Assembly (NCBI GenBank): GCA_015067305.1
Contig: SVMT01000001.1
Location: 28,749 to 92,748 of the forward strand
Length of the DNA: 64,000 bases
Source: Oscillospiraceae bacterium
Lineage (GTDB): Bacteria; Bacillota; Clostridia; Oscillospirales; UBA644
Direction of reading: 5' to 3'
Part shown: one piece after another, positions 1 to 54,736 of the stretch
How positions within the stretch are numbered: position 1 is the stretch's first letter
Layout: each line of letters starts with the position of its first letter
Notes under the pieces: model-generated
The model's database searches: none
What the model was told of the DNA's origin: nothing
The model's input: only the letters and a program-made list of their open reading frames with translations
Position numbers and translations under genes: made by a program

Positions 1-821
1 CCGACAACGATACCCGTGGGCAAGTGAATAATTCTGATAGCGGAGTCTGTTTTGTTAACGTGCTGACCGCCCGCACCGCTGGCTCTGTGAGTTTCAACTC
101 TCAGATCTTCTTCACGAATTTCGATGGTGTTGTCGTCTTCGATTTCGGGAATTACCTCAACGGACGCAAAAGAAGTGTGTCTTCTGCCTGAGCCGTCGAA
201 AGGTGAAACACGCACAAGGCGGTGAACGCCGTTTTCGGATTTGAGATAACCGTAAGCGTTTACGCCCTCGATAAGAATTTCTGCGCTCTTGATACCTGCT
301 TCGTCGCCGTCAAGAATATCAAGAACTTTCACCTTGTAGCCGTGCTGTTCTCCGAAGCGGATATACATTCTGTAAAGCATAAGTGCCCAGTCCTGAGCTT
401 CCGTACCGCCCGCACCGGGATGAATGGAAATAATTGCATTATTTTTGTCGTATTCGCCGTTGAGAAGTGTTTCGAGAGTCTGCTTTTCAAGCTCTTTTTC
501 TACATTTCCCACAGTTTCCACAATTTCAGCGTCGAATTCGTCTGTCTGTTCTTCGCCTGCAAGTTCAATAAGTGTGTAGCCGTCTTCGCAAAGGCTTTCA
601 AGCGCCGCATACGCCGTAACTTTTTCTTTTATCTGCTTCTGCTCAACGAGAAGTTTCTGGGAAGCTTCCATGTCGCCACTCCAGAAATCAGCCGCACCGC
701 TGATCTTTTCAATCTCAGCAAGTCTTTCCTTGAGAGACTCAAGCTTCATCGCTTCACCAAGCTCCTTGATCTGCTTGCTCAGGTCGTCCAGCTTAAATCT
801 GTAATCATCAAGAATTATCAT
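1..821 (-). CDS. prfB: peptide chain release factor 2, first ~273 codons (3' end lies beyond window start)
   Basis: Minus-strand frame is open from ATG 821 (AAAGGAG 5 nt upstream) to nt 1. It is absent from the ORF track because no stop falls in the window. My translation contains RASGAGGQHVNKTDSAIRIIHLPTGIVV (GGQ loop, RF2-type HVNKT) and LKERLAEIEKISGAADFW. Confidence 0.9.
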   Translation of the reverse strand, partial: MIILDDYRFKLDDLSKQIKELGEAMKLESLKERLAEIEKISGAADFWSGDMEASQKLLVEQKQIKEKVTAYAALESLCEDGYTLIELAGEEQTDEFDAEIVETVGNVEKELEKQTLETLLNGEYDKNNAIISIHPGAGGTEAQDWALMLYRMYIRFGEQHGYKVKVLDILDGDEAGIKSAEILIEGVNAYGYLKSENGVHRLVRVSPFDGSGRRHTSFASVEVIPEIEDDNTIEIREEDLRVETHRASGAGGQHVNKTDSAIRIIHLPTGIVV

Positions 822-3153: not shown

Positions 3154-4545
3154 CTAAAATTCGCAACGCTTTTCAATATATGCTCTGAGATCCTCGATCT
3201 TGATTCTTTCCTGAGCCATTGTGTCACGGTCACGGATAGTTACGCAGCCGTCATTTTCGCTGTCAAAGTCGTAAGTAATGCAGAAAGGTGTACCGATTTC
3301 GTCCTGTCTTCTGTATCTCTTACCGATAGAACCTGCATCGTCGAATTCAACATTGAAATATTTTCTGAGTTCGTCGAAAACAACGCCTGCTTTATCGTTG
3401 AGTTTCTTGGAAAGGGGAAGAACAGCCGCCTTAACGGGAGCAAGTGCGGGGTGGAAGTGCATAACTGTTCTGATGTCGGGTTTTTCGGGGTCTGTGGAAA
3501 TATTTTCCTCGTCGTAAGCTTCGCAAAGGAACGCAAGAACAACACGGTCAGCACCGAGAGAGGGTTCGATTACGTAAGGAATATAGTGTTCGTTTGTTTC
3601 CTGGTCAAAATATTCCATATTTTCACCGGAAGTATTCTGATGCTGAGTAAGGTCGAAGTCAGTTCTGTCAGCAATACCCCAAAGTTCGCCCCAACCGAAG
3701 GGGAATACGAATTCGAAGTCTGTTGTAGCGTTGGAATAGTGGGAAAGTTCTTCGGGATCGTGGTCACGGAGTCTGAGGTTTTCTTCCTTGATTCCGAGAC
3801 TCAAAAGCCAATTTTTGCAGAAATCTTTCCAGTATGCGAACCATTCAAGGTCTGTACCGGGTTTGCAGAAGAATTCAAGTTCCATCTGTTCGAATTCACG
3901 TGTTCTGAATGTGAAGTTACCCGGTGTGATCTCATTTCTGAAGCTCTTACCGATCTGACCGATACCAAAGGGAAGCTTCTTTCTTGTTGTACGCTGAACG
4001 TTTTTGAAGTTTACGAAAATACCCTGAGCTGTTTCTGGACGGAGATAGATCTCAGATTTGCTGTCTTCAGTAACGCCCTGGAATGTTTTGAACATAAGGT
4101 TGAATTTACGGATATCTGTGAAATCTTCAGCGCCGCATTCGGGACATTTAACATGGTTTTCTTTGATGTACTGAGCCATCTGTTCGTTGGACCAACCGTT
4201 GCAAACTACGCCGAGATCTTCGAGGATCTTATCTGCTCTGTGTCTTGTTTTGCAAGCTTTACAGTCCATAAGGGGGTCACTAAAACCGCCAACGTGACCG
4301 GAAGCCACCCATGTCTTGGGGTTCATGAGGATAGCGCAGTCAAGACCTACGTTATATTCGGATTCACGGACAAATTTTTTCCACCAAGCGTTTTTTACGT
4401 TGTTTTTCAGTTCAACGCCGAGAGGGCCGTAGTCCCATGTATTGGAAAGACCGCCGTAAATTTCAGAGCCCGCAAAGATGAAACCTCTGTTTTTGCAAAG
4501 TGCGGTTACTTTCTCCATTGTTTTTTCATTATTCTTCATTTGCAT
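3154..4545 (-). CDS. glyQS: glycine--tRNA ligase (homodimeric class II)
   Basis: 463-aa ORF containing [34 protein letters not shown]. The likely real start is ATG 4539 (AGAGGT 7 nt upstream). It overlaps the gyrA stop. Confidence 0.95.
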
Positions 4546-7048
4546 TTACCTCTGTTTCTGCATTTTCAATATTTTCATTTTCTTCATCGTTCTGGGCGAT
4601 GGTTGCGATATTGACTACTTTTACGCCTTCGTCAAATCTCATTATACGAACACCGTTGGAAGCTCTGCCGTAAACGGGAATTTCCGCAAGTTTAGTTCTG
4701 ATGATGTTTCCGTCGGAAGAAATTACGATAAGGTCATCGTTTTCACCGACTTTTCTGATACCCGCAAGCTGACCTGTCTTTTCTGTAATGTTCTGACCGA
4801 TAATACCCTTACCGCCTCTTGTCTGAGGTCTGTAATCTTCAACGGGACTGCGTTTTCCGTAGCCGTTTTCGGTAATTGTAAGTACCTGTTCACCGTCACT
4901 TACAGCAACAGCTCCAACGACATATTCGCCCTCTTCAAGACGGATAGAACGAACACCGCGGGCATTTCTGCCCATAACTCTGGCATCGTTTTCATCGTAT
5001 CTGATGGTAAGACCTGTATTTGCCGCAACGAGCATTGTCTGGTTACCGTCGGTAAGTCTTACGGATACAAGTACGTCGCCTTCGTCAAGTTCAACAGCAT
5101 TGAGACCTGTTTTTCTGATATTCTTGAAATCGGTCATCTTACTGCGTTTTGTTACACCGTTTCTGGTGAACATATTGAAATATTTATCTTCTTCAAGCTC
5201 ATTTACGGGAATTATCGCCGTAACTTTTTCGCCTTCCTGGAGTGAAAGGAGATTTACCACATTCATACCCTTTGCCTGACGTGAAGATTCGGGGATGTTG
5301 TAACCCTTTATCTTGTGAACTCTGCCGAGAGTTGTGAAGAACATCAGATTTGTATGAGTGGAAGCGGTAATAAGCTCTTCAACGAAATCTTCTTCTTTTG
5401 TGGTGAGAGCCATAACGCCTTTACCGCCGCGTTTCTGAACCTTATAGTTTTCTTCGGAAAGACGCTTGATATAACCGTGATTTGTGAGCGTATAAACACA
5501 GTTTTTCTCTTCGATGAGGTCTTCGATATCAATTTCGTCCTCAACATCCTGAATTTCAGTAACTCTGTCGTCGCCGAATCTGTCACTTATTTCTGTAAGC
5601 TCATCACGGAGAACGCCTATGAGCATTTCTTCGGAGTCAAGAAGCTGCTTATAGTATTCGATCTTCTTTTCAAGCTCTTCGTATTCTGCTTTGAGCTTTT
5701 CTTCTTCAAGACCCTGAAGTGCTTTAAGTCTCATTTCGAGGATAGCAGAAGCCTGAACTTCGGAAAGACCGAACCTTTCCATAAGATTTTCTTTAGCGTT
5801 ATCGTAGGAATTTCTGATAATTCTGATAACTTCGTCAATATTTTCCTGAGCAATGAGGAGACCTTCGAGAAGATGTGCTCTTTCCTGAGCTTTTCTCAAG
5901 TCATATCGTGTTCTTCTGATGATAATTTCTTTCTGATGCGCAATATATTCATCGAGAATATTTCTCAAAGAAAGGATCTTGGGCTGGGACTGGTTATTTA
6001 CAAGCGCAAGCATATTGACAGCAAAAGTGGTCTGCATCTGCGTCTGAGAGAAAAGTTTATTGAGAACTACCTGAGAATTTGCGTCTTTTCTCAATTCAAT
6101 AACGATCCTCATACCGTTTCTGTCTGATTCATCACGGATATCGGAGATACCTTCGAGACGTTTTTCACGAACCTGATCCGCAATGGACGCAATAAGCATA
6201 CGCTTGTTTACCTGATAGGGAAGTTCAGTAACGATTATTCTTACTCTGTCTTTGCCGAATTCTTCAAATTCTGTTCTCGCTCTTACTGTAATATGTCCGC
6301 GACCTGTAGCATAAGCGGCTCTGATGCCTTTTCTGCCGAGGATTATACCCTTTGTGGGGAAGTCGGGACCGTGAACACATTCCAGAAGTTCTTCAAGAGA
6401 AGCATCGGGATTATCAAGAACCAATTTTGTAGCGTCAATTACTTCTCTCAGGTTATGGGGAGGAATATTTGTCGCCATACCGACAGCGATACCTGAAGAA
6501 CCGTTTACAAGCAAGTTGGGAAAACGGCTGGGGAGAACACGGGGTTCTTTTCTTGTTTCGTCAAAGTTAGGATCCCAGTCAACGGTCTCTTTTTCAATAT
6601 CGTTGAGCATTTCATCGGCAATTCTGCTCATTCTTGCTTCCGTATAACGGTAAGCAGCAGGGGGGTCACCGTCCACAGAACCGAAGTTACCGTGACCGTC
6701 AATGAGAGGATATCTCATGGAGAAATCCTGCGCAAGTCTTACGAGTGCGTCATAAACTGATGCGTCACCGTGGGGATGATATCTACCGAGAACGTCACCG
6801 ACTGCAGTAGCACATTTACGGAAAGGCTTGTCTCTCGTAAGTCCGTCCTCGTACATAGCATAAAGTATTCTTCTGTGAACGGGTTTAAGACCGTCACGTA
6901 CATCGGGCAGCGCACGTCCTACGATAACGGACATGGCGTACTCGATATAGCTCTGTTTCATTTCCTGAACAAGTTCAGTGGAAGTTATGACCTGGTCGGG
7001 AAACATTATATCTTCCGGTTTATAATCTACATTTTTTCTTTTAGCCAC
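4529..7048 (-). CDS. gyrA: DNA gyrase subunit A
   Basis: 839-aa ORF with [20 protein letters not shown] and [10 protein letters not shown] (active-site Tyr region), plus an acidic C-terminal tail. Confidence 0.97.
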
Positions 7049-7061: not shown

Positions 7062-8996
<1,935 letters not shown>

Positions 8997-9020: not shown

Positions 9021-9135
9021 CACAATGCAAAATGCAAAACGCAGGATGCGTAATGCAAAATTCAGAATGCATAATGCAAAATGAAAGCGTATTTTATCTT
9101 AATAAATGCATAATGCAAAATGCAAGATGCAAAAC
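9021..9135. repeat. TGCA heptad arrays in the gyrB 5' region
   Basis: TGCAAAA TGCAAAA CGCAGGA TGCGTAA TGCAAAA TTCAGAA TGCATAA TGCAAAA, then a second block at 9105-9135. Period is 7 nt. Confidence 0.85.
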
Positions 9136-9243
9136 TATAACATATTTTTATCTTACAAAAAAATATAAAAATTTATTATTTGTTAAATAAATGGAAAACT
9201 GTAAAAAATGCGGCAGAGATTAGTAGTTACAAATCATAACCAA

Positions 9244-9268: not shown

Positions 9269-9520
9269 TTAAAACTTCATTTCTCTTTTAATAAGAGTTG
9301 ATGTGTTGTACTGCGTAACATAAACTGTCGTTTTGCCTTTTTCACTGCATACAACAAATGATCTTGGAAGATCGTAAGTGGTGTAAACCACCTTGTGAGA
9401 CTTTTGCGCCAATGAAAGATATTTGTTCGTGATCGGAGACACCGTAGTCGTCTCTATGTCAAATATCCCCAAAATATCCTTATCGTTTATAACGTAATTC
9501 GCACCTAAATGTAAGTACAT
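9269..9520 (-). CDS. remB: DUF370 protein, RemB/YaaB-like
   Basis: 83-aa ORF starting MYLHLGANYVINDKDILGIFD and ending STLIKR. It occupies the recF-gyrB position held by B. subtilis yaaB/remB. Confidence 0.75.
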   Translation of the reverse strand: MYLHLGANYVINDKDILGIFDIETTTVSPITNKYLSLAQKSHKVVYTTYDLPRSFVVCSEKGKTTVYVTQYNTSTLIKREMKF

Positions 9521-9548: not shown

Positions 9549-9607
9549 CGGAAAAACCATTTTTTGTAAAAATAGATTTTACCGAACCTTTTCCAAAAAA
9601 CTTTTAG
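9549..9607. repeat. R1 REP-like hairpin element
   Basis: CGGAAAAACCATTTTTTGTAAAAATAGATTTTACCGAACCTTTTCCAAAAAAACTTTTAG. Confidence 0.85.
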
Positions 9608-9672
9608 ACCGGATTCCTACTAAATTTTTATTTAAAAAATTAGTTATAATCAAATTATTTATTCTTTTGTCA

Positions 9673-9701
9673 TTGACAAACTAAAAAATATATTATATAA
9701 T
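9673..9701 (+). promoter_or_regulatory. consensus sigma-A promoter of the small-peptide (toxin-like) transcript
   Basis: TTGACA 9673-9678, exact 17-nt spacer, TATAAT 9696-9701. Confidence 0.75.
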
Positions 9702-9794
9702 ATTTCCGGAGTTACCAAACGGGTGCGGTCACTTTCTCTGTGTAGAGGAAGTTGAAATCTTTTTACCTTCCTCTGAAACGAGGGAGGTGATACT

Positions 9795-9893
9795 ATGGAA
9801 TACATAACATTAAGTGAACTCATAGAGTTTTGCACTATGATCTTTACCATTGTCAGTATTGTCTATATCATATCTAACGATAAAAAAAGATAA
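9795..9893 (+). CDS. 32-aa hydrophobic peptide, candidate type I toxin (holin-like small toxin type)
   Basis: GAGGGAGG lies 6 nt upstream of the ATG. Translation is MEYITLSELIEFCTMIFTIVSIVYIISNDKKR: one predicted TM helix and a basic tail. It is below the ORF-track size cut-off. Confidence 0.55.
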   Translation: MEYITLSELIEFCTMIFTIVSIVYIISNDKKR

Positions 9894-9968
9894 CCGCCTA
9901 CACGTCCAAAGTTTGCGGTTATCATAAGCAAATATGAGGAAGTGACCGTTACCGGTAACTCCTTTTCT
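9882..9968 (-). ncRNA. ~87-nt convergent antisense RNA, candidate type I antitoxin
   Basis: Runs from the consensus promoter at 9975-10003 to hairpin GATAACCGC/GCGGTTATC (9923-9889), followed by T7 on the minus strand. It overlaps the last 12 nt of the peptide ORF and its 3' UTR. A paralog lies at 36392-36478. Confidence 0.55.
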
Positions 9969-9974
9969 GTTTAT

Positions 9975-10003
9975 ATTATAACATAATATTTTTGCTTTGT
10001 CAA
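9975..10003 (-). promoter_or_regulatory. consensus sigma-A promoter of the antisense RNA
   Basis: Minus strand reads TTGACA (10003-9998), 17-nt spacer, TATAAT (9980-9975). Confidence 0.75.
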
Positions 10004-10111
10004 CAGCCAAAAAGGAATTTTCTATTAATTCCAGGCTGTTTTTATTTTTGCAAAAACAGACCGCAAATATAATATTTAATTTTTAACTAAAGCCTTAGTA
10101 TCAAGTAAAAC

Positions 10112-10146
10112 CTAATACCTAACACCTAAAACCTATAACCTAACAC
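10112..10146. repeat. heptad array, CCTAA sense on plus strand (5 units)
   Basis: CTAATAC CTAACAC CTAAAAC CTATAAC CTAACAC, abutting the recF stop codon. It reads as UAG-N4 repeats in the recF 3' UTR. Confidence 0.9.
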
Positions 10147-11211
10147 TTACTTGATTATTTTTCCGTTTTCAACTCTCATGACCTTATCCCCGACCCCATC
10201 GGGAACATCGCAGGAAGTAATAATTACCTGCTTGCCCTTGATACGGTTAGTTATGAAATCTTTTCTCTGTTCGTCCAGCTCGGAAAGCACATCATCGAAA
10301 AGCAAAAGAGGATATTCTCCGTGAGCTTCTTCGATCATATCAGCCTCAGCCAATTTCAGACAAAGAACTATTGACCGTTGCTGACCCTGGGACGCAAAAC
10401 GTCTTGAGCTATTACCGTTTATAAAAAGATCAAAGTCGTCCTTATGTGCTCCTATCTGTGAGTAACCTGAATGTATCTCTTCACTTTTCAGCTTACAGAT
10501 TTTTTCAAAAAGCTCGTATTCGTCATTGGTCTCGCCACTGACCGTATATTCAGCCGTCAGAGTTTCAGTATCTCCTGAAATTTCCGCAAGATATTTCAGC
10601 GCATTTCCCGTGAGTTTTTCACAATATGTCCGCCTCGTATTACTTATTATTGAAGAAAGTTTTGCCTGACGGGCGTTCCATATTTCAAGAGTATCAATAT
10701 TTGCACCGTCTGCATTTTTCAACAGATGGTTTTTTTGCGCCAATACACGGTTATATTCGGATAAAACTTCATAATATCTCGGTTTTATCTGACTTATGGA
10801 CATATCAAGAAATTTTCTCCGCACATCGGGACCGCTTTTTATAAGGGAGAGCTGTTCGGGGAAAAACAAAACAGCAGGAAATTTACCCAGCATTTCGCCT
10901 TGTTTGACTTTGATCCCATTTATGTGTATCTGCTTTGTTTTTGTATCAAAAAACCGAAGCTCTGCCTCATAATCACGTCCGTTTCTTGAAAAAACTCCTG
11001 TTACAGAAGCTGAATCACAGCCGTTGCGGATAAATTCCTTTTCATTCGGGGTCCTGAAACTACGACCTGACGTAAAAAGCCACACAGATTCCATTAAATT
11101 AGTCTTTCCTTGGGCATTTTTACCGGAAATTATATTAGAACCCTCACAAAACTCTACTTTTTCCGAAGTAAAATTTCTGTAATCGCGAAGTGCGATGGAT
11201 TTAAGGATCAT
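10147..11211 (-). CDS. recF: DNA replication and repair protein RecF
   Basis: 354-aa ORF with Walker A GKNAQGKTNLMES and signature SQGQQRS...LLLFDDV. It overlaps the dnaN stop. Confidence 0.93.
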   Translation of the reverse strand: MILKSIALRDYRNFTSEKVEFCEGSNIISGKNAQGKTNLMESVWLFTSGRSFRTPNEKEFIRNGCDSASVTGVFSRNGRDYEAELRFFDTKTKQIHINGIKVKQGEMLGKFPAVLFFPEQLSLIKSGPDVRRKFLDMSISQIKPRYYEVLSEYNRVLAQKNHLLKNADGANIDTLEIWNARQAKLSSIISNTRRTYCEKLTGNALKYLAEISGDTETLTAEYTVSGETNDEYELFEKICKLKSEEIHSGYSQIGAHKDDFDLFINGNSSRRFASQGQQRSIVLCLKLAEADMIEEAHGEYPLLLFDDVLSELDEQRKDFITNRIKGKQVIITSCDVPDGVGDKVMRVENGKIIK

Positions 11212-11213: not shown

Positions 11214-12344
11214 TTATCTGTTGTCGTTAAGACGCATGGGTGAAACGAGGAAAACGTATCCGTCACCATTTACGGGAAGAACGCAAAGTGAAGAAAGTGC
11301 GGAATTGAAATTCAACGTAACCTCTTCATCCTCGCAAGCGGAAATTGTTTCAATAAGAATTCTGTTATTGAAACCTATCTCAAGAGGCATACCGTCTGTT
11401 TTGACCTTCATTTCATCTATAAAGCTCTGACCCTGTTCATTTTTGCAAGAAACAATGATCTTTTCTTCTTCAATGGAAAGTCTGATGGGAGTTTTGAGCT
11501 TGCCGTTATCGATGATAATAACAGATGCTCTTTCGATGAGTCTGCGGAAATCCGCGGGCTTGACTTTGACTGTGGTCTTGAATTCCTTGGGAAGGAAACC
11601 TTTATAGTTAAGAAACTGACCGTCAAGAAGTCTGGAGATTATCTTGCATTTATCCGTTTCAAAAACGATATGTTTGGAAGAAAGGCAAAGTCTGACTTCA
11701 TCATCTGTGTCATCAAGGATCTTGATAATTTCGTTAAGAAATTTACCGGGAACGATAAATGAGAATGGATCGCCGTCTCTTTCATAGGGTTCGACCCTGC
11801 GTGCCATTTTCATTCTGTTTGTACATGTAACTGAAACATGATTATCTTCAAATTCAAAGTAAGCACCTGTCAGAGTACCGATGGGGTCTGCGATAGCCAC
11901 AGCGTAGAGTGTCTGACGGAGCATCTTTTTCAGCGTATTGCATGAGAAAGTGAAAGATTTTTCGGAGATGACTGCAGGAAGATTTGGGAAGAGGTTTGCT
12001 TCAGTACATCTGAGAGTAAAATTTGTGGAACCGCCGCTAATGCTGAGATTAAGTCCCGAAGTTTCTATACATGAGATCTCAGGCTCGTCGATGCTTCTCA
12101 CTATTTCAGTGAAAGTCTTGGCGTTGACAACGAGGCTGCCGGGTTTGATTACCGTACAGGGAATATTTATTTCGATACCTGCTTCAGTGTCGAAGCTGGT
12201 GATCTTAGCATTACCCTGACCTTCTATCTCTTTTATCTCAAGAAGGAAACCCTCAAGAGCTGCGATCGGTGTCTTTTGCGGAACGAATTTAGCCGCAGCT
12301 CCGCAAGCGTCGAGGAGAATCCCTCTGTCACAAATGAAATTCAT
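11214..12344 (-). CDS. dnaN: DNA polymerase III beta sliding clamp
   Basis: The ORF track extends to 12506. I place the start at ATG 12344 (AAGGAG upstream), giving MNFICDRGILLDA... (376 aa). Three-domain clamp length; position between dnaA and recF. Confidence 0.92.
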   Translation of the reverse strand: MNFICDRGILLDACGAAAKFVPQKTPIAALEGFLLEIKEIEGQGNAKITSFDTEAGIEINIPCTVIKPGSLVVNAKTFTEIVRSIDEPEISCIETSGLNLSISGGSTNFTLRCTEANLFPNLPAVISEKSFTFSCNTLKKMLRQTLYAVAIADPIGTLTGAYFEFEDNHVSVTCTNRMKMARRVEPYERDGDPFSFIVPGKFLNEIIKILDDTDDEVRLCLSSKHIVFETDKCKIISRLLDGQFLNYKGFLPKEFKTTVKVKPADFRRLIERASVIIIDNGKLKTPIRLSIEEEKIIVSCKNEQGQSFIDEMKVKTDGMPLEIGFNNRILIETISACEDEEVTLNFNSALSSLCVLPVNGDGYVFLVSPMRLNDNR

Positions 12345-12470
12345 AATTTGTCTCCTTTTATTTATTGGTGTGTTAGGTGTTCCCAAACCCTTTCCAAAAA
12401 AACTTTTAGACTTGGGTTCAAAAATATCTCTATTCTTACTCTGAAAATATTTAGAATTACTAAATCTCAA

Positions 12471-12500
12471 TCCTGCACTCTGCATTTTGCATCCTGCATT
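12471..12500. repeat. TGCA heptad array upstream of dnaN
   Basis: TCCTGCA CTCTGCA TTTTGCA TCCTGCA. The 26-mer 12475-12500 is identical to 18138-18163. Confidence 0.85.
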
Positions 12501-12554
12501 ATACAAATTGTATGTATAATAAAATTTAGTAGTAATAGTAGGCCCTGTGCAAAT

Positions 12555-13019: not shown

Positions 13020-14759
13020 CTATTTAAGTACCGCCAGTCCGCCAACGGGTATATTGATAGATACAATTTCGTTCTGTGCGTTCACAAGACCCTGTTCTCC
13101 GACTTTTTCGCCGCAGCAATTCAATATTTCAATATTATAGCTGCCCGTGAGTTCACAAACGACTCTGTCGCTTGTTGTGCCGTTTACGATGTAAGCTGTT
13201 TTTCTTGTTTCAGGTCTGATTATCTTATCTTCAGCATAAACAACAGCGATACTTTCGTTTCCTTTTACAGATTCTGCCCATGTATAGTTGAGATGCATAT
13301 CGTATGCTCTCAGATCACCCTCAAGAAGCAGATCTTTCTTTTCTTTCATGAAATTGAGCCAGAATTTGCTCATTTTCTTTGTTCTGTCGTTAAGTGAATC
13401 CAATCTTGCAGAATACTGCATAACAGCAAAAAGTATACCGATTATCTGCAATGCGTCTTTTTCAGCGGACTCGTCCTTATGCCACATAAGCATATCCGAA
13501 TGTACTGCGCTGTTACCCATGAGCATTCTCAGGTCAAGGGAACACATGCGGTTTTCGATATAATCGCAGGGGCAGTCACCGACTCTGAACATATTACCGA
13601 ATCTTCTCATATGGGGACCGATGTAGCTCTGTCTGAATTCAATGAGAATATCGGGTTTAATTTCTCTCAGAGATGTAATAACGCTTGTCATGAATACATC
13701 CACAGCATCCTGCAGGGACGGAATATCCATTTTTTCGTTATAAGGAGCATTTTCGTCGGAATCCCACCATGAGTCGATAAAGTCAAGCTTGAATCCGTCA
13801 AGATCCCATTCTGTAAGCGCTTTCTTATATTTCTCAATAAGGTAGTCTCTTACTTCTTTATATCTTGGGTCAAGTACAAATTCATTTGCTCTGTGGTTTT
13901 GTCTCAGGAACATATCCTTAAAAATATCATAACTCTTTGAGAAACGTCCTACAAAAGGAACGCTGTACCAAAGAATATATTTCATTCCTATGTCGTGTAC
14001 ACGTTTGACGTGAGCTGCCATATCGGGGAATTTTTCGGGACAGGGTTCCCAGTCTCCGCAATAAGCATAGCCTCTTCCGTTGTCGGAAGTCTGCCAGCCG
14101 TCGTCAACGATACAAACATCAAAGCCCAGATCTTTAGCTCTCTTACATTCTTCTTCGACATTTTTTTCGTTTACGCCCTGATGGAATGAGTACCAGAAAG
14201 AATAACAGGGTTCTTTTGCCGCAGCCGGAACGTAAGTGGGAGTGATTCCCAGGCTTTCCCACCACTGAGATACTGCTTTCAGAGCCTCATAAGTGGGAAT
14301 TTCTCTCATATCAAGTCTTATGGTGATCTCTGTTTCGTATTTGTTTGTGAACTGCTGAGTTCCCATGGAAACTTTAAACTGAAGGTTTCCGTTTTCTTCA
14401 ACTATACCGTTTCTGATTCTTGTAAGCATTTTCGCTTCGGAAAGCGCCATTGTGCATTTGTTTACGCCCTGACCGTCATAGTATGAATGAACGGGTGAGC
14501 CGTTTGAGATCATATGGCTTACAGGTCCGCACCAGTCGGGGTCGATATAATGTGCTGTTCTGCATTTGGGCTGCCAGCCGTACATTATGCCTGTAAGAGG
14601 AAGGTTCCATTCAAAAACGAATTCATCGTTATTTTTCGCATTTTCTTTTGTCCATGTCAGTTTAAAGGTATATTCTTTTATACCGTTTTCATCTTTTTTA
14701 TTTATAAGAGCCGCATTTTGTCCCTCTTGGAACTTTATATCAAAAAATTCAATATTCAT
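13020..14759 (-). CDS. GH36/GH27-clan (alpha-galactosidase-like) glycoside hydrolase, paralog b
   Basis: 579-aa ORF with CIVDDGWQ, GDWEP...KFPD and FKLDFID (melibiase-type TIM-barrel motifs). Strong RBS GGAGG. Confidence 0.65.
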   Translation of the reverse strand: MNIEFFDIKFQEGQNAALINKKDENGIKEYTFKLTWTKENAKNNDEFVFEWNLPLTGIMYGWQPKCRTAHYIDPDWCGPVSHMISNGSPVHSYYDGQGVNKCTMALSEAKMLTRIRNGIVEENGNLQFKVSMGTQQFTNKYETEITIRLDMREIPTYEALKAVSQWWESLGITPTYVPAAAKEPCYSFWYSFHQGVNEKNVEEECKRAKDLGFDVCIVDDGWQTSDNGRGYAYCGDWEPCPEKFPDMAAHVKRVHDIGMKYILWYSVPFVGRFSKSYDIFKDMFLRQNHRANEFVLDPRYKEVRDYLIEKYKKALTEWDLDGFKLDFIDSWWDSDENAPYNEKMDIPSLQDAVDVFMTSVITSLREIKPDILIEFRQSYIGPHMRRFGNMFRVGDCPCDYIENRMCSLDLRMLMGNSAVHSDMLMWHKDESAEKDALQIIGILFAVMQYSARLDSLNDRTKKMSKFWLNFMKEKKDLLLEGDLRAYDMHLNYTWAESVKGNESIAVVYAEDKIIRPETRKTAYIVNGTTSDRVVCELTGSYNIEILNCCGEKVGEQGLVNAQNEIVSINIPVGGLAVLK

Positions 14760-14781
14760 ATATGTTTCCTCCGTAAAAAGG

Positions 14782-14857
14782 TTTTAGGTTACAGGTGTTA
14801 GGTATTAGTTTCTGGGTTTTAGGTTACAAGTAATAAGTATTCACTAACACCTATAAC
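14782..14857. repeat. inverted heptad arrays between the GH36-like paralogs
   Basis: TTTTAGG TTACAGG TGTTAGG TATTAGT TTCTGGG TTTTAGG TTACAAG TAATAAG, then CTAACAC CTATAAC in the opposite sense. Confidence 0.85.
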
Positions 14858-14867
14858 CTACTGAAGC

Positions 14868-16616
14868 TTACAGCTTCAGTATCGCCAGTCCCCCGACAGG
14901 TACATAAATCTTTATGATTTCATTTTCAGCATTTTTAACTGTCTGTTCTCCGACCTTTTCGCCGCAGCAATCAAAAATCTCAATATTATAACTACCGTTC
15001 AATTCACAGAGAACTCTGTCACATGTTGTTCCGTTAGCTATATAAGTAGTTTTTCTTGTTTCGGGCTTTATACATTTATCAACTGCATAAACAGCAGAAA
15101 AAGCCTCATCGCCTTTTATGGATTCTGCCCATGTGTATGTCAGATTGGGTTCATATGTTCTGAGCTCACCCTCAAGGAGAAGATCTTTCTTTTCCTTCAT
15201 AAAGTCGAGCCAGAATTTACTCATTTTCTTCGTTCTGTCATTGAGCGAATCCAATTTAGAGGAATACTGCATAACGCCGAAAATTATGCCGATTATCTGC
15301 AAAGCATTTTGTTCTGCGCTTTCATCCTTATGCCACATGAGCATATCGGAATGTACCGCACTCTTGCCCATAAGCATTCTCAGGTCAAGAAGTGCCATAC
15401 GGTTTTCTATATAGTCACATGGACAGTCGCTTACACGGAACATATTACCGAATTTTCTCATATGGGGACCGATATAATTCTGTCTGAATTCAATAAGTAT
15501 ATCGGATTTTATTTCTTTCAGCGCCTTGATTATATTTGTCATGAACACATCAACTGCGTCCTGCAAAGAGGGGATATCCATTTTTTCGTTATAAGGTGCA
15601 TTATCGGGACGGTCTTCCCAGTTGTCTATGAAATCAAGCTTGAATCCGTCAAGATCCCATTCTTTAAGTGCTTTGACGCATTTATTTGTGAGATGTTCCC
15701 TTACTTCTTTATATCTTGGGTCAAGAATAAATTCTTTTCCGTTGTGATTATCTCTCTGTCTCAGAGTCATGTCTTTAAATATCTCATAACTCTTGGAGTA
15801 ATATCCCAAGAACGGAGTACCGTACCAAAGAATATATTTCATGCCGATGTCATGTACACGTTTTACGTGAGCTGCCATATCGGAAAATTTATCAGGGCTG
15901 GGATCCCAGTCTCCGCAATAGGCATAGCCGTATTTATTTCTTTCATTCTGCCAGCCATCATCAACGATACAAACATTGAATCCCAACTCTTTTGCACGTT
16001 TACATTCTTCTTCAACGTCTTTTTCGTTTATATCCTGGTGATGAGAATACCAGAAAGAATAACAAGGCTCTTTAGCCGCCGCGGGAACAAAAGCAGGTTC
16101 CATACCAAGACTTACCCACCATTCGGTAACAGAATTTACCGCTTCATATACGGGAATGCTTCTTTCGTCGATCCTTACTGTTATTTCCGTTTCATATTTT
16201 TTCGTATATTGCTGTGTACCGAGGGAAAATTTCAGTTGGAGATCTCCGTTACTTTCATTCACTCCGTTTTGAATGCTTGTCAGCATTTTAGCTTCGGAAA
16301 GAGCAACGGTATATTTATTTTTTCCATGACCGTCATAATATGTACCCATAGGCGCACCGTTGGAAAACATATGGTTTACAGCACCGTCCCAACTGCGGAG
16401 GATATCACGGCGCATACTGCATTTAGGATTCCAACCGTACATCATTCCGATAAGGGGTGTACTCCAACAGAAAACAAATTTATCGTTGTTTTCAGCATTT
16501 TTCTCTGTCCATGTCAGCCTGAAAGTATATTCTGTAATTCCGTTTTCGGCTTTTTTATCTATAAGAACCACATTTTGTCCGTCTTTTACGGTAATATTAA
16601 AAATTTCTATGTTCAT
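14868..16616 (-). CDS. GH36/GH27-clan (alpha-galactosidase-like) glycoside hydrolase, paralog a
   Basis: Alignable along its full length with 13020-14759. About two-thirds identical over the first 66 residues by hand count. Start set at ATG 16616 (MNIEIFNI..., matching the paralog); the ORF track extends to 16637. Confidence 0.65.
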   Translation of the reverse strand: MNIEIFNITVKDGQNVVLIDKKAENGITEYTFRLTWTEKNAENNDKFVFCWSTPLIGMMYGWNPKCSMRRDILRSWDGAVNHMFSNGAPMGTYYDGHGKNKYTVALSEAKMLTSIQNGVNESNGDLQLKFSLGTQQYTKKYETEITVRIDERSIPVYEAVNSVTEWWVSLGMEPAFVPAAAKEPCYSFWYSHHQDINEKDVEEECKRAKELGFNVCIVDDGWQNERNKYGYAYCGDWDPSPDKFSDMAAHVKRVHDIGMKYILWYGTPFLGYYSKSYEIFKDMTLRQRDNHNGKEFILDPRYKEVREHLTNKCVKALKEWDLDGFKLDFIDNWEDRPDNAPYNEKMDIPSLQDAVDVFMTNIIKALKEIKSDILIEFRQNYIGPHMRKFGNMFRVSDCPCDYIENRMALLDLRMLMGKSAVHSDMLMWHKDESAEQNALQIIGIIFGVMQYSSKLDSLNDRTKKMSKFWLDFMKEKKDLLLEGELRTYEPNLTYTWAESIKGDEAFSAVYAVDKCIKPETRKTTYIANGTTCDRVLCELNGSYNIEIFDCCGEKVGEQTVKNAENEIIKIYVPVGGLAILKL

Positions 16617-16648
16617 GTATGATTCTTCACTCTGCATTTTGCATTAAT

Positions 16649-18001
16649 TTAGTGTTCTTTTACATTCTTGATTATCTGCTGAACTCTGTCCTTGAATACA
16701 GGATTTGTTGCGAGTTTCTGTTCGATCTTCTTAATGGAATGGTGAACGGTGGAGTGATCTTTACCGTTGAATTCCTGACCGATCTCAGGTAGAGACATAT
16801 CTGTAATATCACGCATGATATACATTGCGATCTGTCTTGCAAATGCTACGGATTCAATACGTTTGTTACCCTTGATCTCGTCTGCGGGAACATCAAATTC
16901 ACGGCTTACTTCCACGATGATCTTGTCGATTATTACGGGAAGAGGTTCGTTTTCGTTGACGATATCCCTGATAGCACTCTGCGCAATGGCAATAGAAGGA
17001 GGCATATTTGAAACAAGCTGGAACGCCATGATCTTTGTGATAACGCCTTCAAGCTGTCTGATATTGTTTTTGATCTTCATTGCCACGAAGTCGATAACAT
17101 CGTTGGGTAATGTGATACCGTAAGTCTGCGCTTTCATTTTTATGATCGCAACTTTCAGTTCGTATTCGGGCATATAAATATCCGTAATGATACCCGATTC
17201 AAAACGTGAACGTAAACGTGATTCAAGCAGGGGAATATCCTTCGGAGGACGGTCCGATGCAAGGATTATCTGTTTGTTATCCTCGTAAAGAGCGTTGAAA
17301 GTGTGGAAAAATTCATCCTGAGTTGAATCTTTACCTGCAATAAACTGAATATCATCCACAAGAAGAACATCAACGGTCCTGTATTTGTTTTTGAATTCAG
17401 TCATGTTCTTGTTCTGGAGGTGGTCGATTAGGTCATTTGTAAATTCTTCGCCCTTGATATATAGAACCTTGTAAGAGGGGAAATTTTTATGTACTTCCGT
17501 GCTGATAGCTTTCAGTAAGTGAGTTTTACCGAGACCTGTATTACCGTAAATGAAAAGAGGGTTGTAAGAACGTGCTGGACTTCTTGCAACGGAAAGGCAC
17601 GCCGCATGAGCATGTTTGTTGGATTCGCCCACGATGAAGTTATCGAAAGTATATTCTGACGGTTTCTGCTCCACCATGTTGTTCATGTTATCCTCAACAT
17701 GAGTTTGGATATTTGAAGCCTTCGATTTTGGTATTTCCTGCTTGTCCTCAGAAGAGAGAACGCTTATATCCACATCAAAACCGACCATTTCCGAAAGAGT
17801 ATCTTTCAGAATACCTCTGTATTTTGACATAATGATATCCTTATGGAAAGGTGAATGAACGGCTAGCACAAAACAGTTATCCTCGTAACGAATGGGCGTA
17901 ATTGTTCTGATCCAAAGATTCATTGCCGTACCGCTTATCTGCCCGTCAAGTTTGTCTACAGCCATCTGCCAGATGGAATTAAGTGATTGCACTAAAAACA
18001 C
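16649..18001 (-). CDS. dnaA: chromosomal replication initiator DnaA
   Basis: 450-aa ORF with AAA+ motif GNTGLGKTHLLKAI and C-terminal DNA-binding GQEFNGKDHSTVHHSIKKIE. The likely true start is GTG 17992 (AAAGGAAG 8 nt upstream). Confidence 0.95.
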   Translation of the reverse strand: MFLVQSLNSIWQMAVDKLDGQISGTAMNLWIRTITPIRYEDNCFVLAVHSPFHKDIIMSKYRGILKDTLSEMVGFDVDISVLSSEDKQEIPKSKASNIQTHVEDNMNNMVEQKPSEYTFDNFIVGESNKHAHAACLSVARSPARSYNPLFIYGNTGLGKTHLLKAISTEVHKNFPSYKVLYIKGEEFTNDLIDHLQNKNMTEFKNKYRTVDVLLVDDIQFIAGKDSTQDEFFHTFNALYEDNKQIILASDRPPKDIPLLESRLRSRFESGIITDIYMPEYELKVAIIKMKAQTYGITLPNDVIDFVAMKIKNNIRQLEGVITKIMAFQLVSNMPPSIAIAQSAIRDIVNENEPLPVIIDKIIVEVSREFDVPADEIKGNKRIESVAFARQIAMYIMRDITDMSLPEIGQEFNGKDHSTVHHSIKKIEQKLATNPVFKDRVQQIIKNVKEH

Positions 18002-21460: not shown

Positions 21461-21489
21461 TTGACAATATATATAAAAAATGTTATAAT
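21461..21489 (+). promoter_or_regulatory. consensus promoter ahead of the repeat-containing leader
   Basis: TTGACA 21461-21466, 17-nt spacer, TATAAT 21484-21489. Confidence 0.7.
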
Positions 21490-21509: not shown

Positions 21510-21829
21510 AAATTCCCAATGAATTTTAGGGGAAGGGCACAAGAATCTCTCTTGTTTCCAAAAAGGGATCTAACGCAACCATAAAAGTAGTTACCAAATT
21601 ATCAGCGTCAGCTGTCAGACCTTATTTTGTAAATTCCCACCAACGAGTTTTAGGGGAAAGGGCGCGGGGAAACCCCCTTGTTTCCAAAAAGGGATCTAAC
21701 GCAACCATAAAAGTAGTTACCAAATTATCAGCGTCAGCTGTCAGAACTTATTTTATAAATTCCCACCAACGAGTTTTAGGGGAAAGGGCGCGGGGAAACC
21801 CCCTTGTTCCTAAAAGGGGGTTTCCCCGC
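21510..21829 (+). repeat. 2.6 tandem copies of a 121-126-bp unit in the 5' leader of the 21866 gene
   Basis: Units start at 21510, 21631 and 21757 (AAATTCCCA...). Each carries an R1-type core. The last ends in the complete hairpin GCGGGGAAACCCCC-12 nt-GGGGGTTTCCCCGC (21790-21829). Confidence 0.9.
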
Positions 21830-21865
21830 AAATAAATTACTAAACATATACTAAGGAGCATACAT

Positions 21866-23455
21866 ATGAAAGCTTGTATTATACAGCCGCCATACGGTCG
21901 GGAAACGTCATTTTCCGATGAATTTTTTGAGTTTAAGCTGAAAATGCTTGACGAATGTACCGAAGAACTTGACATTATCGTGCTTCCTGAGTACAGCGAC
22001 GTACCATGCGCTACTGAAAATCTTGAAGATACACTGTTCTGGCATGAAAAATATGCGAAAAAACTCCATGAAAAGTGCAAAAGTACAGCAAAAAGATGTA
22101 ATTCTCTCGTCTTTGTCAATGCTTTGAGCAAGGAAAACAGCGGTTACAGAAATACTACTTTCGCTTACGGCAGAAACGGCGAACTGTTGGGAAAATACTT
22201 CAAAAAACACCTTCCGCCCCTTGAACGTGAAGTCCTGAATCTGGATTCCGATTACACTTTTGAGCCGTCCGAGCCGTTTATTCTGGAGATCGAGGGACTC
22301 AGGTACGCTTTTTTGACTTGCTACGACTTCTATTTTTATGAATCTTTTGCAAATATTGCGCGAAATAATGTGGATATCATCATCGGCTGCTCCCTCCAGC
22401 GAAGCGACTACCACGACGCTATCGAGATCATGTGCCGATTTTTGGCGTACAATACCAACGCCTACGTTTTGCGCAGTTCCGTGAGCTTCGATGAAAACAG
22501 CGAAATTTGCGGCGCAAGTATGGCGGTTTCGCCTTACGGCAAGGTCATTGCGAATATGAAAGGGCGTTTCGGCAAGGAAATCGTTGAATTTGACCCAACG
22601 GACAAGCATTTCAAGCCTGCAGGATTCGGAAATCCGCCTGCGGCACACCATGAATACATCGAATACGGCAGAAAACCCTGGCAATATCGTGTTGGCGGCT
22701 CTTCGACCGTGCCTTTTGAGACTGAAATGAAGTACCCACGCATCTGCGCGCACCGAGGTTTCAGCACCGTTGCCCCCGAAAATACAATGCCCGCATTCGG
22801 TGCCGCCATCGGAATGGGCTCTCAGGAGATCGAATTTGACCTTTGGCCCACCAAGGACGGAGAGATCGTTTCCTGCCACGACCAGACTTTGGAACGAGTC
22901 AGCGATGGCGAGGGTAAAATAACGGAAAAAACATATGATGAGCTGAAAAACCTTGATTTCGGCGCTAAATTCGGCGAAAAATTCTCAGGTCTGCGTATAG
23001 TAAAATTCGAAGAAATTCTGAAAAAATTCGGCGGTCAGACCATAATGAATATCCACATCAAGCCCACAGGCAAGAATTACGACAGAAAAATTATGGAAAA
23101 TATCGTAGGTCTTATCCGCAAATACGACTGCGAGCGCCACGTGTATTTCATGCTTGAAGTTGACGAATACATTCCCATGTTCAAGGAATTTGCTCCGAAA
23201 ATTCCCGTTTGCGTAGGTCATGACAGCGACAGACCCTGGGAGATCGTTGACCGAGCTATCAAGTACGGTGCAGAAAAAGTCCAGCTTTTCAAGCCGTTTT
23301 TCAATGAGGAAATGATCAAAAAAGCCCATGAACACGGCATTATTTGCAATGTCTTCTGGGCAGACGACCCCGACGAGGCTCGCCGCTACATCGACATGGG
23401 CATCGACACGATCCTGACAAACGAGTATAACCTTGTTTCTCAGATCCTGAAATGA
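21866..23455 (+). CDS. fusion protein: carbon-nitrogen hydrolase domain + glycerophosphodiester phosphodiesterase domain
   Basis: 529-aa ORF. The N-terminal half resembles nitrilase-superfamily proteins (IVLPEYS..., LTCYDFYF). The C-terminal half has GDPD motifs ICAHRGFSTVAPENTMPAF and EIEFDLWPTKDGEIVSCHD. Confidence 0.7.
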   Translation: MKACIIQPPYGRETSFSDEFFEFKLKMLDECTEELDIIVLPEYSDVPCATENLEDTLFWHEKYAKKLHEKCKSTAKRCNSLVFVNALSKENSGYRNTTFAYGRNGELLGKYFKKHLPPLEREVLNLDSDYTFEPSEPFILEIEGLRYAFLTCYDFYFYESFANIARNNVDIIIGCSLQRSDYHDAIEIMCRFLAYNTNAYVLRSSVSFDENSEICGASMAVSPYGKVIANMKGRFGKEIVEFDPTDKHFKPAGFGNPPAAHHEYIEYGRKPWQYRVGGSSTVPFETEMKYPRICAHRGFSTVAPENTMPAFGAAIGMGSQEIEFDLWPTKDGEIVSCHDQTLERVSDGEGKITEKTYDELKNLDFGAKFGEKFSGLRIVKFEEILKKFGGQTIMNIHIKPTGKNYDRKIMENIVGLIRKYDCERHVYFMLEVDEYIPMFKEFAPKIPVCVGHDSDRPWEIVDRAIKYGAEKVQLFKPFFNEEMIKKAHEHGIICNVFWADDPDEARRYIDMGIDTILTNEYNLVSQILK

Positions 23456-23628: not shown

Positions 23629-23708
23629 ATTAGCTTATAGAAAGTGCAATTAAAGGGTATCAGAACTTATTTTATAAATTCCCCCGCAAAAAAACTCATC
23701 TTAAATTA

Positions 23709-23736
23709 TTCTGCATTCTGCACTTTGCATTTTGCA
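23709..23736. repeat. TGCA heptad array in the mnmE 5' UTR (4 units)
   Basis: TTCTGCA TTCTGCA CTTTGCA TTTTGCA, ending 8 nt before the AAAGGAG RBS. Confidence 0.9.
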
Positions 23737-23753
23737 TTATTAAAGGAGCCATT

Positions 23754-25103: not shown

Positions 25104-25248
25104 TAGGCCTTAGGCCTTAGGTGTTAGGTGTTAGGCCTTAGTGTAAAATAAATTAAAAAAACAGCTACCGCTAATTTTGTTGCGGTAGCTTTTATAATTA
25201 AAAAACTGTAACCTACTAAAACCTAACACCTAAAGCCTAAGCCCTGTG
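25104..25248. terminator. T1 composite bidirectional terminator element
   Basis: The core hairpin AGCTACCGC-10 nt-GCGGTAGCT (25163-25190) has an A run before it and a T run after it. Its conserved arms are CCTTAGTGTAAAAT... and ...TATAATTAAAAAACTGTAACCT. The whole element is flanked by inverted TTAGG/CCTAA heptads. It lies between convergent mnmE and pflA. Confidence 0.8.
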
Positions 25249-28479: not shown

Positions 28480-28523
28480 GAGGTAAAACAGTACATTTTA
28501 GTGCTAAATTATGGAGAGATAGG

Positions 28524-28600
28524 GATTAGGTCATAGGCCTCAGGGGTTAGGCCTTAGGCCATAGGGTTTAGGTATCAGGTATCAGGTATTAGGTGTTAGG
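28524..28600. repeat. heptad array, TTAGG sense, 11 units
   Basis: GATTAGG TCATAGG CCTCAGG GGTTAGG CCTTAGG CCATAGG GTTTAGG TATCAGG TATCAGG TATTAGG TGTTAGG. Exact 7-nt register throughout. Confidence 0.92.
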
Positions 28601-28676
28601 TACATTTACCGATATGCTGAAACCAATCATTCCGTTTTTAAGTTTCGAATTTTTTCTGAATTCGAGGAGATCAATA

Positions 28677-30529: not shown

Positions 30530-30568
30530 GATACAAAGGGCTTCGAAGATTAAAGTTATAATTAAAAC

Positions 30569-30596
30569 CTAATACCTAAAACCTAGCACCTAAACC
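30569..30596. repeat. heptad array, CCTAA sense (4 units)
   Basis: CTAATAC CTAAAAC CTAGCAC CTAAACC. Inverted relative to array 28524-28600 at the other edge of the islet. Confidence 0.88.
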
Positions 30597-30639
30597 CTAT
30601 TGAAGCCTAATTTAGCACTAAAATGTACTGATTTCTCCA

Positions 30640-36328: not shown

Positions 36329-36391
36329 TTTTTAGGTATTAGCGACAAACTGAGATCTGATGTCGAACCGTCTGATATGTTATATTAGCAA

Positions 36392-36478: not shown

Positions 36479-36520
36479 ATGTGAAATGACGTTTTCCCAA
36501 TAAAAATACCCACAACCATC

Positions 36521-52414: not shown

Positions 52415-52436
52415 AAAAAAACTCCGTTTTTTAAAA

Positions 52437-52464: not shown

Positions 52465-52510
52465 TGAATTGTATTTTTTATTTTGAAAGCTGCCGCATTC
52501 TTTTTTAGTG

Positions 52511-54698: not shown

Positions 54699-54736
54699 GT
54701 TTTCATGAAAGCTTGTATTTTGAGCTTTGCTCGGTA

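Follow-up and report, generated by a model that had tools for sequence, protein, structure and literature searches.

Introduction

Type I toxins share a small size, a transmembrane helix and a charged C-terminus (PMC6563280; PMC2887945), and the type I systems of Bacillus subtilis in general combine sequestration of the Shine-Dalgarno (SD) sequence with an overlap of the two RNAs at their 3' ends (PMC6562991). One of these, bsrG/SR4 of the TxpA/BsrG family, is carried by the prophage SPbeta. In the bsrG mRNA, nucleotides (nt) 1-35 pair with nt 232-262 in a helix named P1, inside which lies a short SD helix (PMC3834814). When SR4 binds the 3' region of bsrG, nt 1-33 are released as a single strand and the SD helix lengthens from 4 to 8 bp (PMC3834814); RNase III then cleaves the bsrG/SR4 duplex (PMC3834814; PMC6562991). 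Here we analyse a 64,000-nt stretch of contig SVMT01000001.1 from an Oscillospiraceae bacterium (the whole stretch is called the window) and describe a cassette between its recF and remB genes that is probably a type I toxin-antitoxin-like module built in the manner of bsrG/SR4.

Fold-back of the toxin mRNA is also known from hok/Sok of plasmid R1 and from AapA1/IsoA1-type mRNAs. In hok the 5' and 3' ends of the mRNA pair (PMC3834814), and this fold-back form hides the ribosome-binding site, is inert and is activated by 3' trimming (PMC3834814; PMC6562991); Sok acts at the 5' translation-initiation region. In fst/RNA II (par of pAD1, Enterococcus), the two RNAs carry direct repeats through which their 5' ends can base-pair, so that RNA II covers the ribosome-binding site (PMC3834814). 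In txpA/RatA, from the B. subtilis skin element, the two RNAs are convergent with a 3'-end overlap and the SD is extended and sequestered; decay is presumed to proceed via RNase III cleavage of the duplex, and RatA leaves the SD structure unchanged (PMC6562991).

Organisation of the cassette

The cassette consists of two convergent predicted transcription units with the following features.

9673-9701, plus strand: promoter of the peptide mRNA, TTGACA-17-TATAAT, 12/12 match to consensus, predicted start G9708
9708-9972, plus strand: predicted full-length peptide mRNA, ~265 nt, ending at the U-rich tract UUUUCUGUUU after the 3' arm
9708-9740, plus strand: 5' arm of the long-range helix, analogous to bsrG P1
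~9728-9737, plus strand: segment a, anti-SD-like GUCACUUUCU, within the 5' arm
9744-9752, plus strand: segment b, SD-like decoy AGAGGAAGU, can pair with segment c
9765-9774, plus strand: segment c, anti-SD ACCUUCCUCU, an inverted repeat with alternative folds, can pair with segment b or with the SD
9780-9791, plus strand: SD region, GAGGGAGGTGAT (GAGGGAGGUGAU), identical with segment d; its GGAGG core lies 7 nt from the ATG
9795-9893, plus strand: open reading frame (ORF) of 32 codons plus stop, ATG start, encoding the peptide MEYITLSELIEFCTMIFTIVSIVYIISNDKKR
9889-9923, both strands: hairpin T1, 9-bp stem and 17-nt loop, terminator of the antisense RNA
9931-9962, plus strand: 3' arm of the long-range helix, which on its own forms a local hairpin, T2, followed by UUUUCUGUUU
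9968-9882, minus strand: predicted antisense RNA, ~87 nt, composed of a 5' hairpin, a single-stranded spacer and T1 followed by U7
10003-9975, minus strand: promoter of the antisense RNA, TTGACA-17-TATAAT, 12/12 match with an extended -10 TG, predicted start A9968

Together, the sequence features of the cassette are far beyond chance. Much of this layout had been proposed in a sequence-only reading of the window, and it holds: two perfect promoters do face each other, the 32-codon ORF does begin with ATG behind a strong SD, the complementarity between the 5' and 3' parts of the plus-strand RNA is exact, and the convergent antisense RNA, with its own promoter and terminator, does overlap the 3' end of the ORF and the 3' untranslated region (UTR). 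A peptide with one hydrophobic helix and a basic tail, as proposed, is reproduced by the hydropathy profile, and the recF-remB-gyrB block given as the setting is confirmed by the identities of recF, remB, gyrB and gyrA.

The TTGACA-17-TATAAT consensus is clearly used by the host organism, as the window has 10 perfect sites against 0 expected, and two of the 10 are the facing pair of the cassette. The plus and minus promoters form an inverted repeat (31 nt, 77%), which extends, when the first ~30 nt of each transcript are added, to two arms of an imperfect inverted repeat of 70 nt. The antisense RNA thus begins with a near-copy of the 5' end of the mRNA.

Structure of the peptide mRNA

The ends of the peptide mRNA were placed from the promoter and the U-tract. 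A plus-strand RNA of 268 nt folds at -91.2 kcal/mol (z -7.4), and the dominant feature is a helix that closes the whole molecule: GGAGTTACC (9708-9716) and GGTCACTT (9727-9734) are the reverse complement of AAGTGACC (9940-9947) and GGTAACTCC (9954-9962). The complementarity spans 33 nt and the corresponding duplex (9708-9742 with 9926-9972) is worth -43.1 kcal/mol, against a mean of -16.6 +/- 3.4 for shuffled sequences (z -7.8; 0/1000 as good); 656 window positions of identical geometry were compared, and all fall short of this value. In all four variants of the cassette, namely that of the window and those of three related loci (L001, L002 and L006, described below), the long helix between nt 1-33 and the 3' UTR has a predicted pairing probability of ~1.0, and it is 2 bp longer in the three relatives than in the window.

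The region around the SD can pair in more than one way. The 5' UTR holds the four mutually compatible segments a-d, and a fifth, e (GAGGAAGUGAC), lies in the 3' UTR. Enclosed by the closing helix, the SD is predicted to form a duplex with the anti-SD that lies upstream of it (ACCUUCCUC with GAGGGAGGU). In an RNA that ends just past the ORF-proximal hairpin, the predicted fold switches to a:d pairing nested around b:c. The SD core GGAGGUGAU, the last nine bases of the SD region, has the first eight of its nine bases paired at a predicted probability of 0.8-1.0 in every form and in all four variants. By thermodynamic prediction, opening the stretch from the SD to the AUG costs 8.9 kcal/mol in the free full-length mRNA, 15.1 kcal/mol in the short mRNA that ends after T1, and 15.2 kcal/mol when the 3' region is occupied by the antisense RNA. 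Restraint of translation by mRNA structure, through sequestration of the SD as in type I systems, is therefore what the in silico folds give. The UTR differences among the four copies fall in hairpin loops or linkers or are compatible with pairing; at the base of the anti-SD hairpin an A-U pair changes to G.U among the four loci, and the other differences in the b/c region are located in loops.

The antisense RNA and a proposed mechanism

The predicted antisense RNA folds at -26.5 kcal/mol (z about -3.0 to -3.5), and a covariance model built from it, which we call R1, scores 105 bits at the cassette. In its terminator hairpin T1, GATAACCGC (9889-9897) pairs with GCGGTTATC (9915-9923), and the A7 at 9882-9888 of the plus strand is the T7 that follows T1 on the minus strand. 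The template for the U7 tract is the AAA AAA A run within the Lys-Lys-Arg codons, and the overlap of the antisense RNA with the mRNA therefore takes in the final three codons, the stop and all of the 3' UTR. The 12/12 promoter with its extended -10, the hairpin followed by U7 and the 86-bp duplex with the mRNA are, at the level of prediction, what a type I antisense RNA would have. One half of the T1 loop, UCCAAAGU in the sense and ACUUUGGA in the antisense RNA, is conserved in all copies and the other half varies, which is how a recognition loop would be expected to look. When the mRNA and antisense RNA are folded together, the predicted structure is the 86-bp duplex, with the 5' end of the mRNA displaced and segment a re-paired with the SD.

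We suggest the following mechanism. The consensus promoter would yield the ~265-nt mRNA for a 32-residue, single-helix membrane peptide; the first 33 nt of this mRNA would form the long closing helix with the 3' UTR, and the strong ribosome-binding site would be buried in a hairpin with the upstream anti-SD. From the opposite strand, the facing promoter would produce the ~87-nt RNA that ends at the hairpin and U7 over the stop codon and that could pair at every base with the terminator hairpin and with the closing helix's 3' arm. The antisense RNA may first touch the mRNA through the large conserved terminator loop, and the contact would then zip into the 86-bp duplex. The duplex would displace the 5' end of the mRNA, and the freed GUCACUUUCU would re-pair with the ribosome-binding site in a tighter lock; the duplex would also make the mRNA a substrate for RNase III. 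Were the antisense RNA lost, some free full-length mRNA could be translated and the peptide could insert in the membrane. The alternative pairings on which this scheme depends are few and clear, so the idea is easily tested by mutation.

A search of Rfam returned ctRNA_pT181 (RF00242) for 9876-9981 (minus strand) at 29.4 bits against a cut-off of 56 (E 0.19), in a match that includes the identical loop stretch CAAACUUUGG. Membership of this family was rejected, the match being below threshold, and the likeness is probably convergence or chance. Over the whole window, no Rfam family reaches its threshold.

The peptide

The peptide has an acidic N-terminus, one hydrophobic stretch (approximately residues 9-27) and a basic NDKKR tail; the 19-residue window 9-27 has a mean hydropathy of 2.18. 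At 32 residues, with its single predicted transmembrane helix and charged C-terminus, it has the form of type I toxins (<60 residues). Against the 3' end of 16S rRNA, GGAGGTGAT would give nine contiguous complementary bases. The sequence-only reading held that a protein-centric annotation would miss this locus; this needs correction, as a metagenome gene caller did predict the ORF (P0001), although it left it unannotated.

Between the window and the loci L001, L002 and L006 the peptide is identical, its codons showing two synonymous and no non-synonymous differences, and it is apparently under purifying selection. Outside these loci, no relative of it came up in the databases searched. A word-indexed search with an X-padded query of a collection of 5.8 billion protein clusters, and a full HMMER scan of 1.84 billion representatives, each recovered the peptide itself and nothing else. 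Comparison with plasmids and phages by tblastn gave nothing meaningful, and two scans of viral contigs with degenerate peptide patterns gave nothing.

Comparison with known type I systems

The sequence-only reading likened the cassette to hok/Sok, fst/RNAII and txpA/RatA. The type I-like anatomy stands in silico; the closest system, however, is bsrG/SR4 and not hok/Sok or fst. Both bsrG and the cassette encode a small single-helix peptide. In both, the 5' nucleotides of the mRNA (1-35 in bsrG, 1-33 in the cassette) lie in a long closing helix with an SD hairpin within, and the target of a convergent antisense RNA is the 3' region, the 3' half of the helix included; the two elements that define the design, a 5'-3' helix and an antitoxin complementary to its 3' half, are thus both predicted here. 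Binding frees the 5' end and tightens sequestration of the SD, as reported for bsrG and predicted for the cassette. The peptide's sole Pfam match is the model of this same family. There are differences as well. The cassette peptide is under the family cut-off, and our pairwise test used TxpA rather than BsrG. The antisense RNA is shorter, at ~87 nt, and the 86-bp overlap compares with 100-140 bp in the B. subtilis systems (PMC6562991). bsrG has a separate terminator stem-loop after P1, whereas in the cassette the 3' arm itself precedes the U-tract, and the cassette has an ORF-proximal hairpin inside the long helix. Finally, bsrG occupies a prophage site, whereas the cassette is located in a core block of replication genes in an uncultured member of the Clostridia.

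The other three systems are more distant. Like txpA/RatA, the cassette has convergent RNAs with a 3'-end overlap and an extended, sequestered SD; TxpA, however, has 59 residues against 32, and the cassette antisense RNA, unlike RatA, is predicted to alter the SD structure. With hok the cassette shares pairing of the mRNA ends in a fold-back, but the hok fold-back hides the ribosome-binding site whereas the fold-back form of the cassette is predicted to be the easier to open, and the cassette antisense RNA would bind the 3' arm and not the 5' initiation region. The fst peptide is of similar size (~33 residues), its convergent RNAs share a two-way terminator (as in the cassettes of L001, L002 and L006), and an initial loop-loop contact is plausible in both; in the cassette, however, the repeats are inverted and the two 5' ends are alike, where the direct repeats of par make them complementary. 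Beyond Hol_Tox, no Pfam match places the peptide in the Hok family and no Pfam or NCBIfam match places it in the Fst family, and the locus has the distinguishing make-up of neither hok/Sok nor fst/RNA II. A trans-acting anti-SD, as in fst or SprA1, was also considered and dropped, the pairing being at chance level (see below).

If the resemblance to bsrG/SR4 is true, the cassette would be a second, independent case of a rare design in which an antitoxin acting far downstream reshapes the ribosome-binding site; if confirmed, it would be a new type I toxin-antitoxin family from uncultured gut Clostridia that lies beyond the reach of protein searches. Type I modules are common and the cassette fits a known pattern, so we regard the finding as useful rather than surprising.

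The cassette in related genomes

Three other loci carry the cassette: L001, an ENA metagenome contig; L002, a metagenome-assembled genome (MAG) of the Eubacteriales, reached through its RecF (90% identity); and L006, a metagenome contig from a metagenome scan. In each it occupies the recF-remB site as in the window, with 93-96% DNA identity. All four promoter hexamers are invariant in these loci while the spacers vary, the plus-promoter spacer differing at 3-4 positions in L002 and L006. The ORF and the 5'-3' complementarity, whose conservation in homologous loci had been proposed as a check, are kept in all three, although a divergence of 4-7% makes the test a weak one.

The loci differ at T1. 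The sequence-only reading placed a run of T after the hairpin on the minus strand only, which is correct for the window; L001, L002 and L006, however, also have TTTTT after T1 on the plus strand, five bases that the window lacks, and by its sequence T1 in these loci is a classic two-way terminator. The related claim that the 5' end of the mRNA folds on its own 3' UTR accordingly fares differently by locus: it applies to all transcripts of the window variant, whereas elsewhere a two-way terminator precedes the 3' arm and the fold may be confined to read-through RNA.

The cassette is missing from 23 syntenic loci, which comprise two MAGs, L003 and L004 (RecF 89% and 82% identical to that of the window; L004 is from goat rectum), and 21 contigs, L007-L027 (RemB 72-93% identical), several of which share one metagenome series. 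In all 23, recF and remB either overlap by 11 nt or have 3-35 nt between them, which argues that the cassette was inserted recently, within a narrow uncultured lineage of gut Clostridia. The best RemB match in the searched contig collection is 98% identical to that of the window, whose own genome is thus apparently not part of that collection. Searching plasmids and phages with the cassette by blastn retrieved AT-rich promoter-like stretches and nothing else, a viral scan with the conserved core pattern of the small RNA (sRNA) gave nothing, and we found no paper describing a module at the recF-remB site.

As a separate observation, a GC-rich palindromic insert of ~50 nt (TTCCGGGAGGGGGCTGTCAGCTTTGCTGACTGGGG...) lies upstream of the plus promoter in L001 (~1560-1610) and L002 (~5670-5720); the window does not have it at the equivalent position (~9600-9625).

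An orphan paralogue of the antisense RNA

The window holds one paralogue of the antisense RNA.

36378-36481, plus strand: orphan antisense-RNA paralogue, RNA ~36394-36481, with the same two-hairpin design as the cassette antisense RNA

It was found by nhmmer (E 3.5e-6) and then with R1 (36394-36477, 48.4 bits, E 4e-10). Its promoter lacks a -35 but has an extended -10, TGTTATATT (36378-36386). Similarity to the cassette starts at this -10 region, continues to the U-tract and ends exactly where the antisense RNA has its 3' end. The paralogue has no partner ORF at this locus, and the opposite strand is taken by the promoter of the next gene. The orphan RNA folds at -37.7 kcal/mol (z -6.7). An R1-fitted alignment of five sequences has 98.9% of cells paired and four pairs changed on both sides, a result reached by 0/500 shuffles; three of the four are one matched A:U insertion in the T1 stem and the fourth is a change from U-A to C-G in the 5' hairpin. 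We regard this compensation as modest support for the antisense hairpins, because one lineage supplies every change and the alignment itself had been fitted to the structure. By predicted duplex energy, the orphan RNA could still pair with the 3' region of the candidate toxin mRNA (-84.6 kcal/mol; the cognate RNA gives -160.4 and shuffles -30.9).

Two further R1 matches, at 25156-25217 and 54664-54747 (both minus strand; E 0.001 and 0.006), were rejected since they cover the generic terminator part only. Both are intrinsic terminators that share an ACCGC...GCGGT stem core with T1; that at 54664-54747 is an ordinary terminator with no 5' hairpin, and at 25156-25217 almost all R1 positions of the 5' hairpin are missing from the alignment.

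Evaluation of the toxin-antitoxin assignment

Several observations weigh against reading the cassette as a bsrG/SR4-like toxin-antitoxin module. The first concerns the RNA: in the predicted folds the SD is sequestered in every state, which makes synthesis of the peptide hard to explain. In L001, L002 and L006 a share of the mRNA probably stops at T1, short of the 3' arm, which would shrink the antisense overlap to ~46 nt. Pairing of the antisense 5' region with the SD in trans is at chance level (z -1.4; 44/500 shuffles as good). Covariation cannot be used on the 5'-3' helix, because the four full cassettes are near-identical (93-96%) and the sole diverged paralogue does not have the 5' part of the mRNA. 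The partnerless orphan also fits an sRNA family with a role of its own.

The second concerns the peptide. A comparison with profiles of small holin-like toxins, which the sequence-only reading had recommended, returned Hol_Tox (PF16935) as the only Pfam match of the peptide (E 0.0023), but its 18.2 bits are below the Pfam gathering cut-off of 23.3, and the PHROGs holin match is weak. The Hol_Tox match is suggestive, and 10 shuffled peptides, five of them keeping the three segments, gave no Pfam match. PF16935 is the TxpA family, as judged by the TxpA homologues P0101 and P0103 that carry it, the source name of P0103 being "Toxic peptide TxpA". Kinship with TxpA by pairwise alignment was nevertheless rejected: the score is not significant (z 1.3, or z 0.1 with segment-preserving shuffles) and BLASTP of the peptide against TxpA yields no alignment. 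NCBIfam has no match to the peptide, and neither the best PADLOC assignment (ZorB/MotB, E 0.022) nor that from PHROGs (holin, E 0.078) is strong enough to be relied on. Membership of the TxpA/BsrG family is, from these comparisons, not established. We have kept to "toxin-antitoxin-like" as the right strength of claim because transcription and toxicity are putative.

The main alternative accepts the RNA anatomy but has it serve a small membrane protein that does no harm, perhaps one that modulates a membrane complex, with its expression tuned by a cis-antisense RNA. The peptide is under threshold for the sole toxin family it touches, purifying selection fits any functional small protein, and candidate type I toxins can be non-toxic; overproduction of YhzE-2 in B. 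subtilis, for example, caused no growth defect (Fozo et al., PMC2887945). We nevertheless consider this unlikely, as the union of so strong a promoter and an extended SD with several layers of translational lock is typical of products that have to be kept off, and a recent insertion with patchy distribution fits a selfish or accessory module better than a housekeeping factor.

Genomic setting and transcription of the gyrase genes

The cassette is embedded in a block of replication genes, all on the minus strand.

11214-12506, minus strand: dnaN
10147-11211, minus strand: recF
9269-9520, minus strand: remB (NCBIfam NF046065, 56 bits against a cut-off of 40)
7062-8993, minus strand: gyrB
4529-7048, minus strand: gyrA

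The recF-remB gap of the window measures 626 nt and holds the cassette as an insert of ~330 bases, an unusual site because the recF-remB-gyrB block is otherwise densely packed. This insertion splits what is probably a single operon in relatives and raises the question of how gyrase is transcribed in this lineage.

That question bears on a further explanation, in which the minus-strand RNA is the functional product and the ORF is secondary, the RNA being either a trans-acting sRNA family or a promoter and leader that serve remB-gyrB-gyrA through a leaky terminator. The orphan, which matches exactly from promoter to terminator and has no ORF partner, would fit the former. As for the latter, the minus promoter is directed towards remB; beyond the antisense terminator, no site before remB resembles a promoter at more than 9/12 positions; recF, remB and gyrB in relatives are 3-35 nt apart or overlapping and presumably co-transcribed; and the insertion separates remB-gyrB-gyrA from recF. 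The ORF, however, has an excellent SD, correct spacing, an ATG and synonymous change only, and the perfect plus promoter would be purposeless without a plus-strand product. In addition, the stem followed by U7 looks like an efficient terminator, and no trans target has been identified. We regard this explanation as very unlikely.

Returning to the bsrG/SR4-like module, we considered whether it could be joined with these additional roles. The fold-back would then work in the sense opposite to hok/Sok: pairing of the 5' and 3' UTRs would hold off one of the two anti-SD segments and would be the sole translatable state, and the antisense RNA, with a 5' hairpin that near-copies the 5' end of the mRNA, would compete and free the segment to lock the ribosome-binding site. 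The antisense RNA would be part of a family of sRNAs that includes members standing alone, such as the orphan at 36.4 kb, and the antisense promoter may supply remB-gyrB-gyrA transcription. The combination as a whole seems to us unlikely; if it is true, gyrase expression would be tied to the module.

The stretch that separates the recF stop codon from the antisense promoter contains two AT-rich hairpins, at 10020-10075 of the window (minus strand): one formed by CUGUUUUU/AAAAACAG, the other by GGAAUU/AAUUCC followed by UUUUU. They could be terminators of recF transcription in the cassette-bearing genomes; our terminator scan passed over them, as they have too few G-C pairs.

For the cassette itself we found no transposase, no second copy of the full element and no target-site duplication. 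A 27-nt direct repeat does flank it, but this is 74% identical and AT-rich, and a mobile-element reading was rejected since transposase, second full copy and convincing target duplication are all missing. It is most improbable that the cassette is a functionless remnant of mobile or duplicated DNA whose two promoter-leader arms arose by inverted duplication: the arms do form the 70-nt imperfect inverted repeat, the element is an insertion and the surrounding intergenic DNA is full of short repeat arrays, but both promoters are perfect in four loci while spacers and flanks vary, change in the ORF is synonymous only, substitutions avoid the stems, and the same want of transposase, target-site duplication and other full copy applies.

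Further upstream, dnaA (16649-18001) is separated from dnaN by two paralogous melibiase-like (GH31-like) glycosidase genes (13020-16637, minus strand), whereas in the relative L023 dnaA is directly upstream of dnaN. The origin-region block of this lineage has thus taken up several insertions.

Repeat arrays

A 7-nt unit, TTTAGGT (ACCTAAA when read from the opposite strand, with one variable position), forms intergenic arrays that recur across the window at the following positions.

1070-1099: TTTAGGT array
2228-2266: TTTAGGT array
10106-10146: TTTAGGT array
14779-14825: TTTAGGT array
30563-30599: TTTAGGT array
55592-55709: TTTAGGT array

One of these arrays sits directly after the recF stop codon and next to the cassette, and its length differs among the four loci. 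The arrays of L002 are much longer (~130-220, ~1990-2410 and ~6190-6290). A second 7-nt family, AATGCAA (TTGCATT on the other strand), occurs at 9024-9155, 52435-52466 and 53197-53230; the largest of its arrays fills the remB-gyrB gap, which measures 275 nt in the window against ~10 nt in relatives, and this array stretch is ~100 nt longer in the window than in L001. Other period-7 arrays, with the units ATTCTGC, TAGGCCT and AGGTATC, are located at 23708-23738, 25104-25141 and 28521-28602. A 126-nt tandem repeat at 21516-21883 (2.4-2.9 copies), which has no family match in Rfam, has a GC-rich hairpin-like core and sits just downstream of a perfect consensus promoter at 21461-21489 (plus strand).

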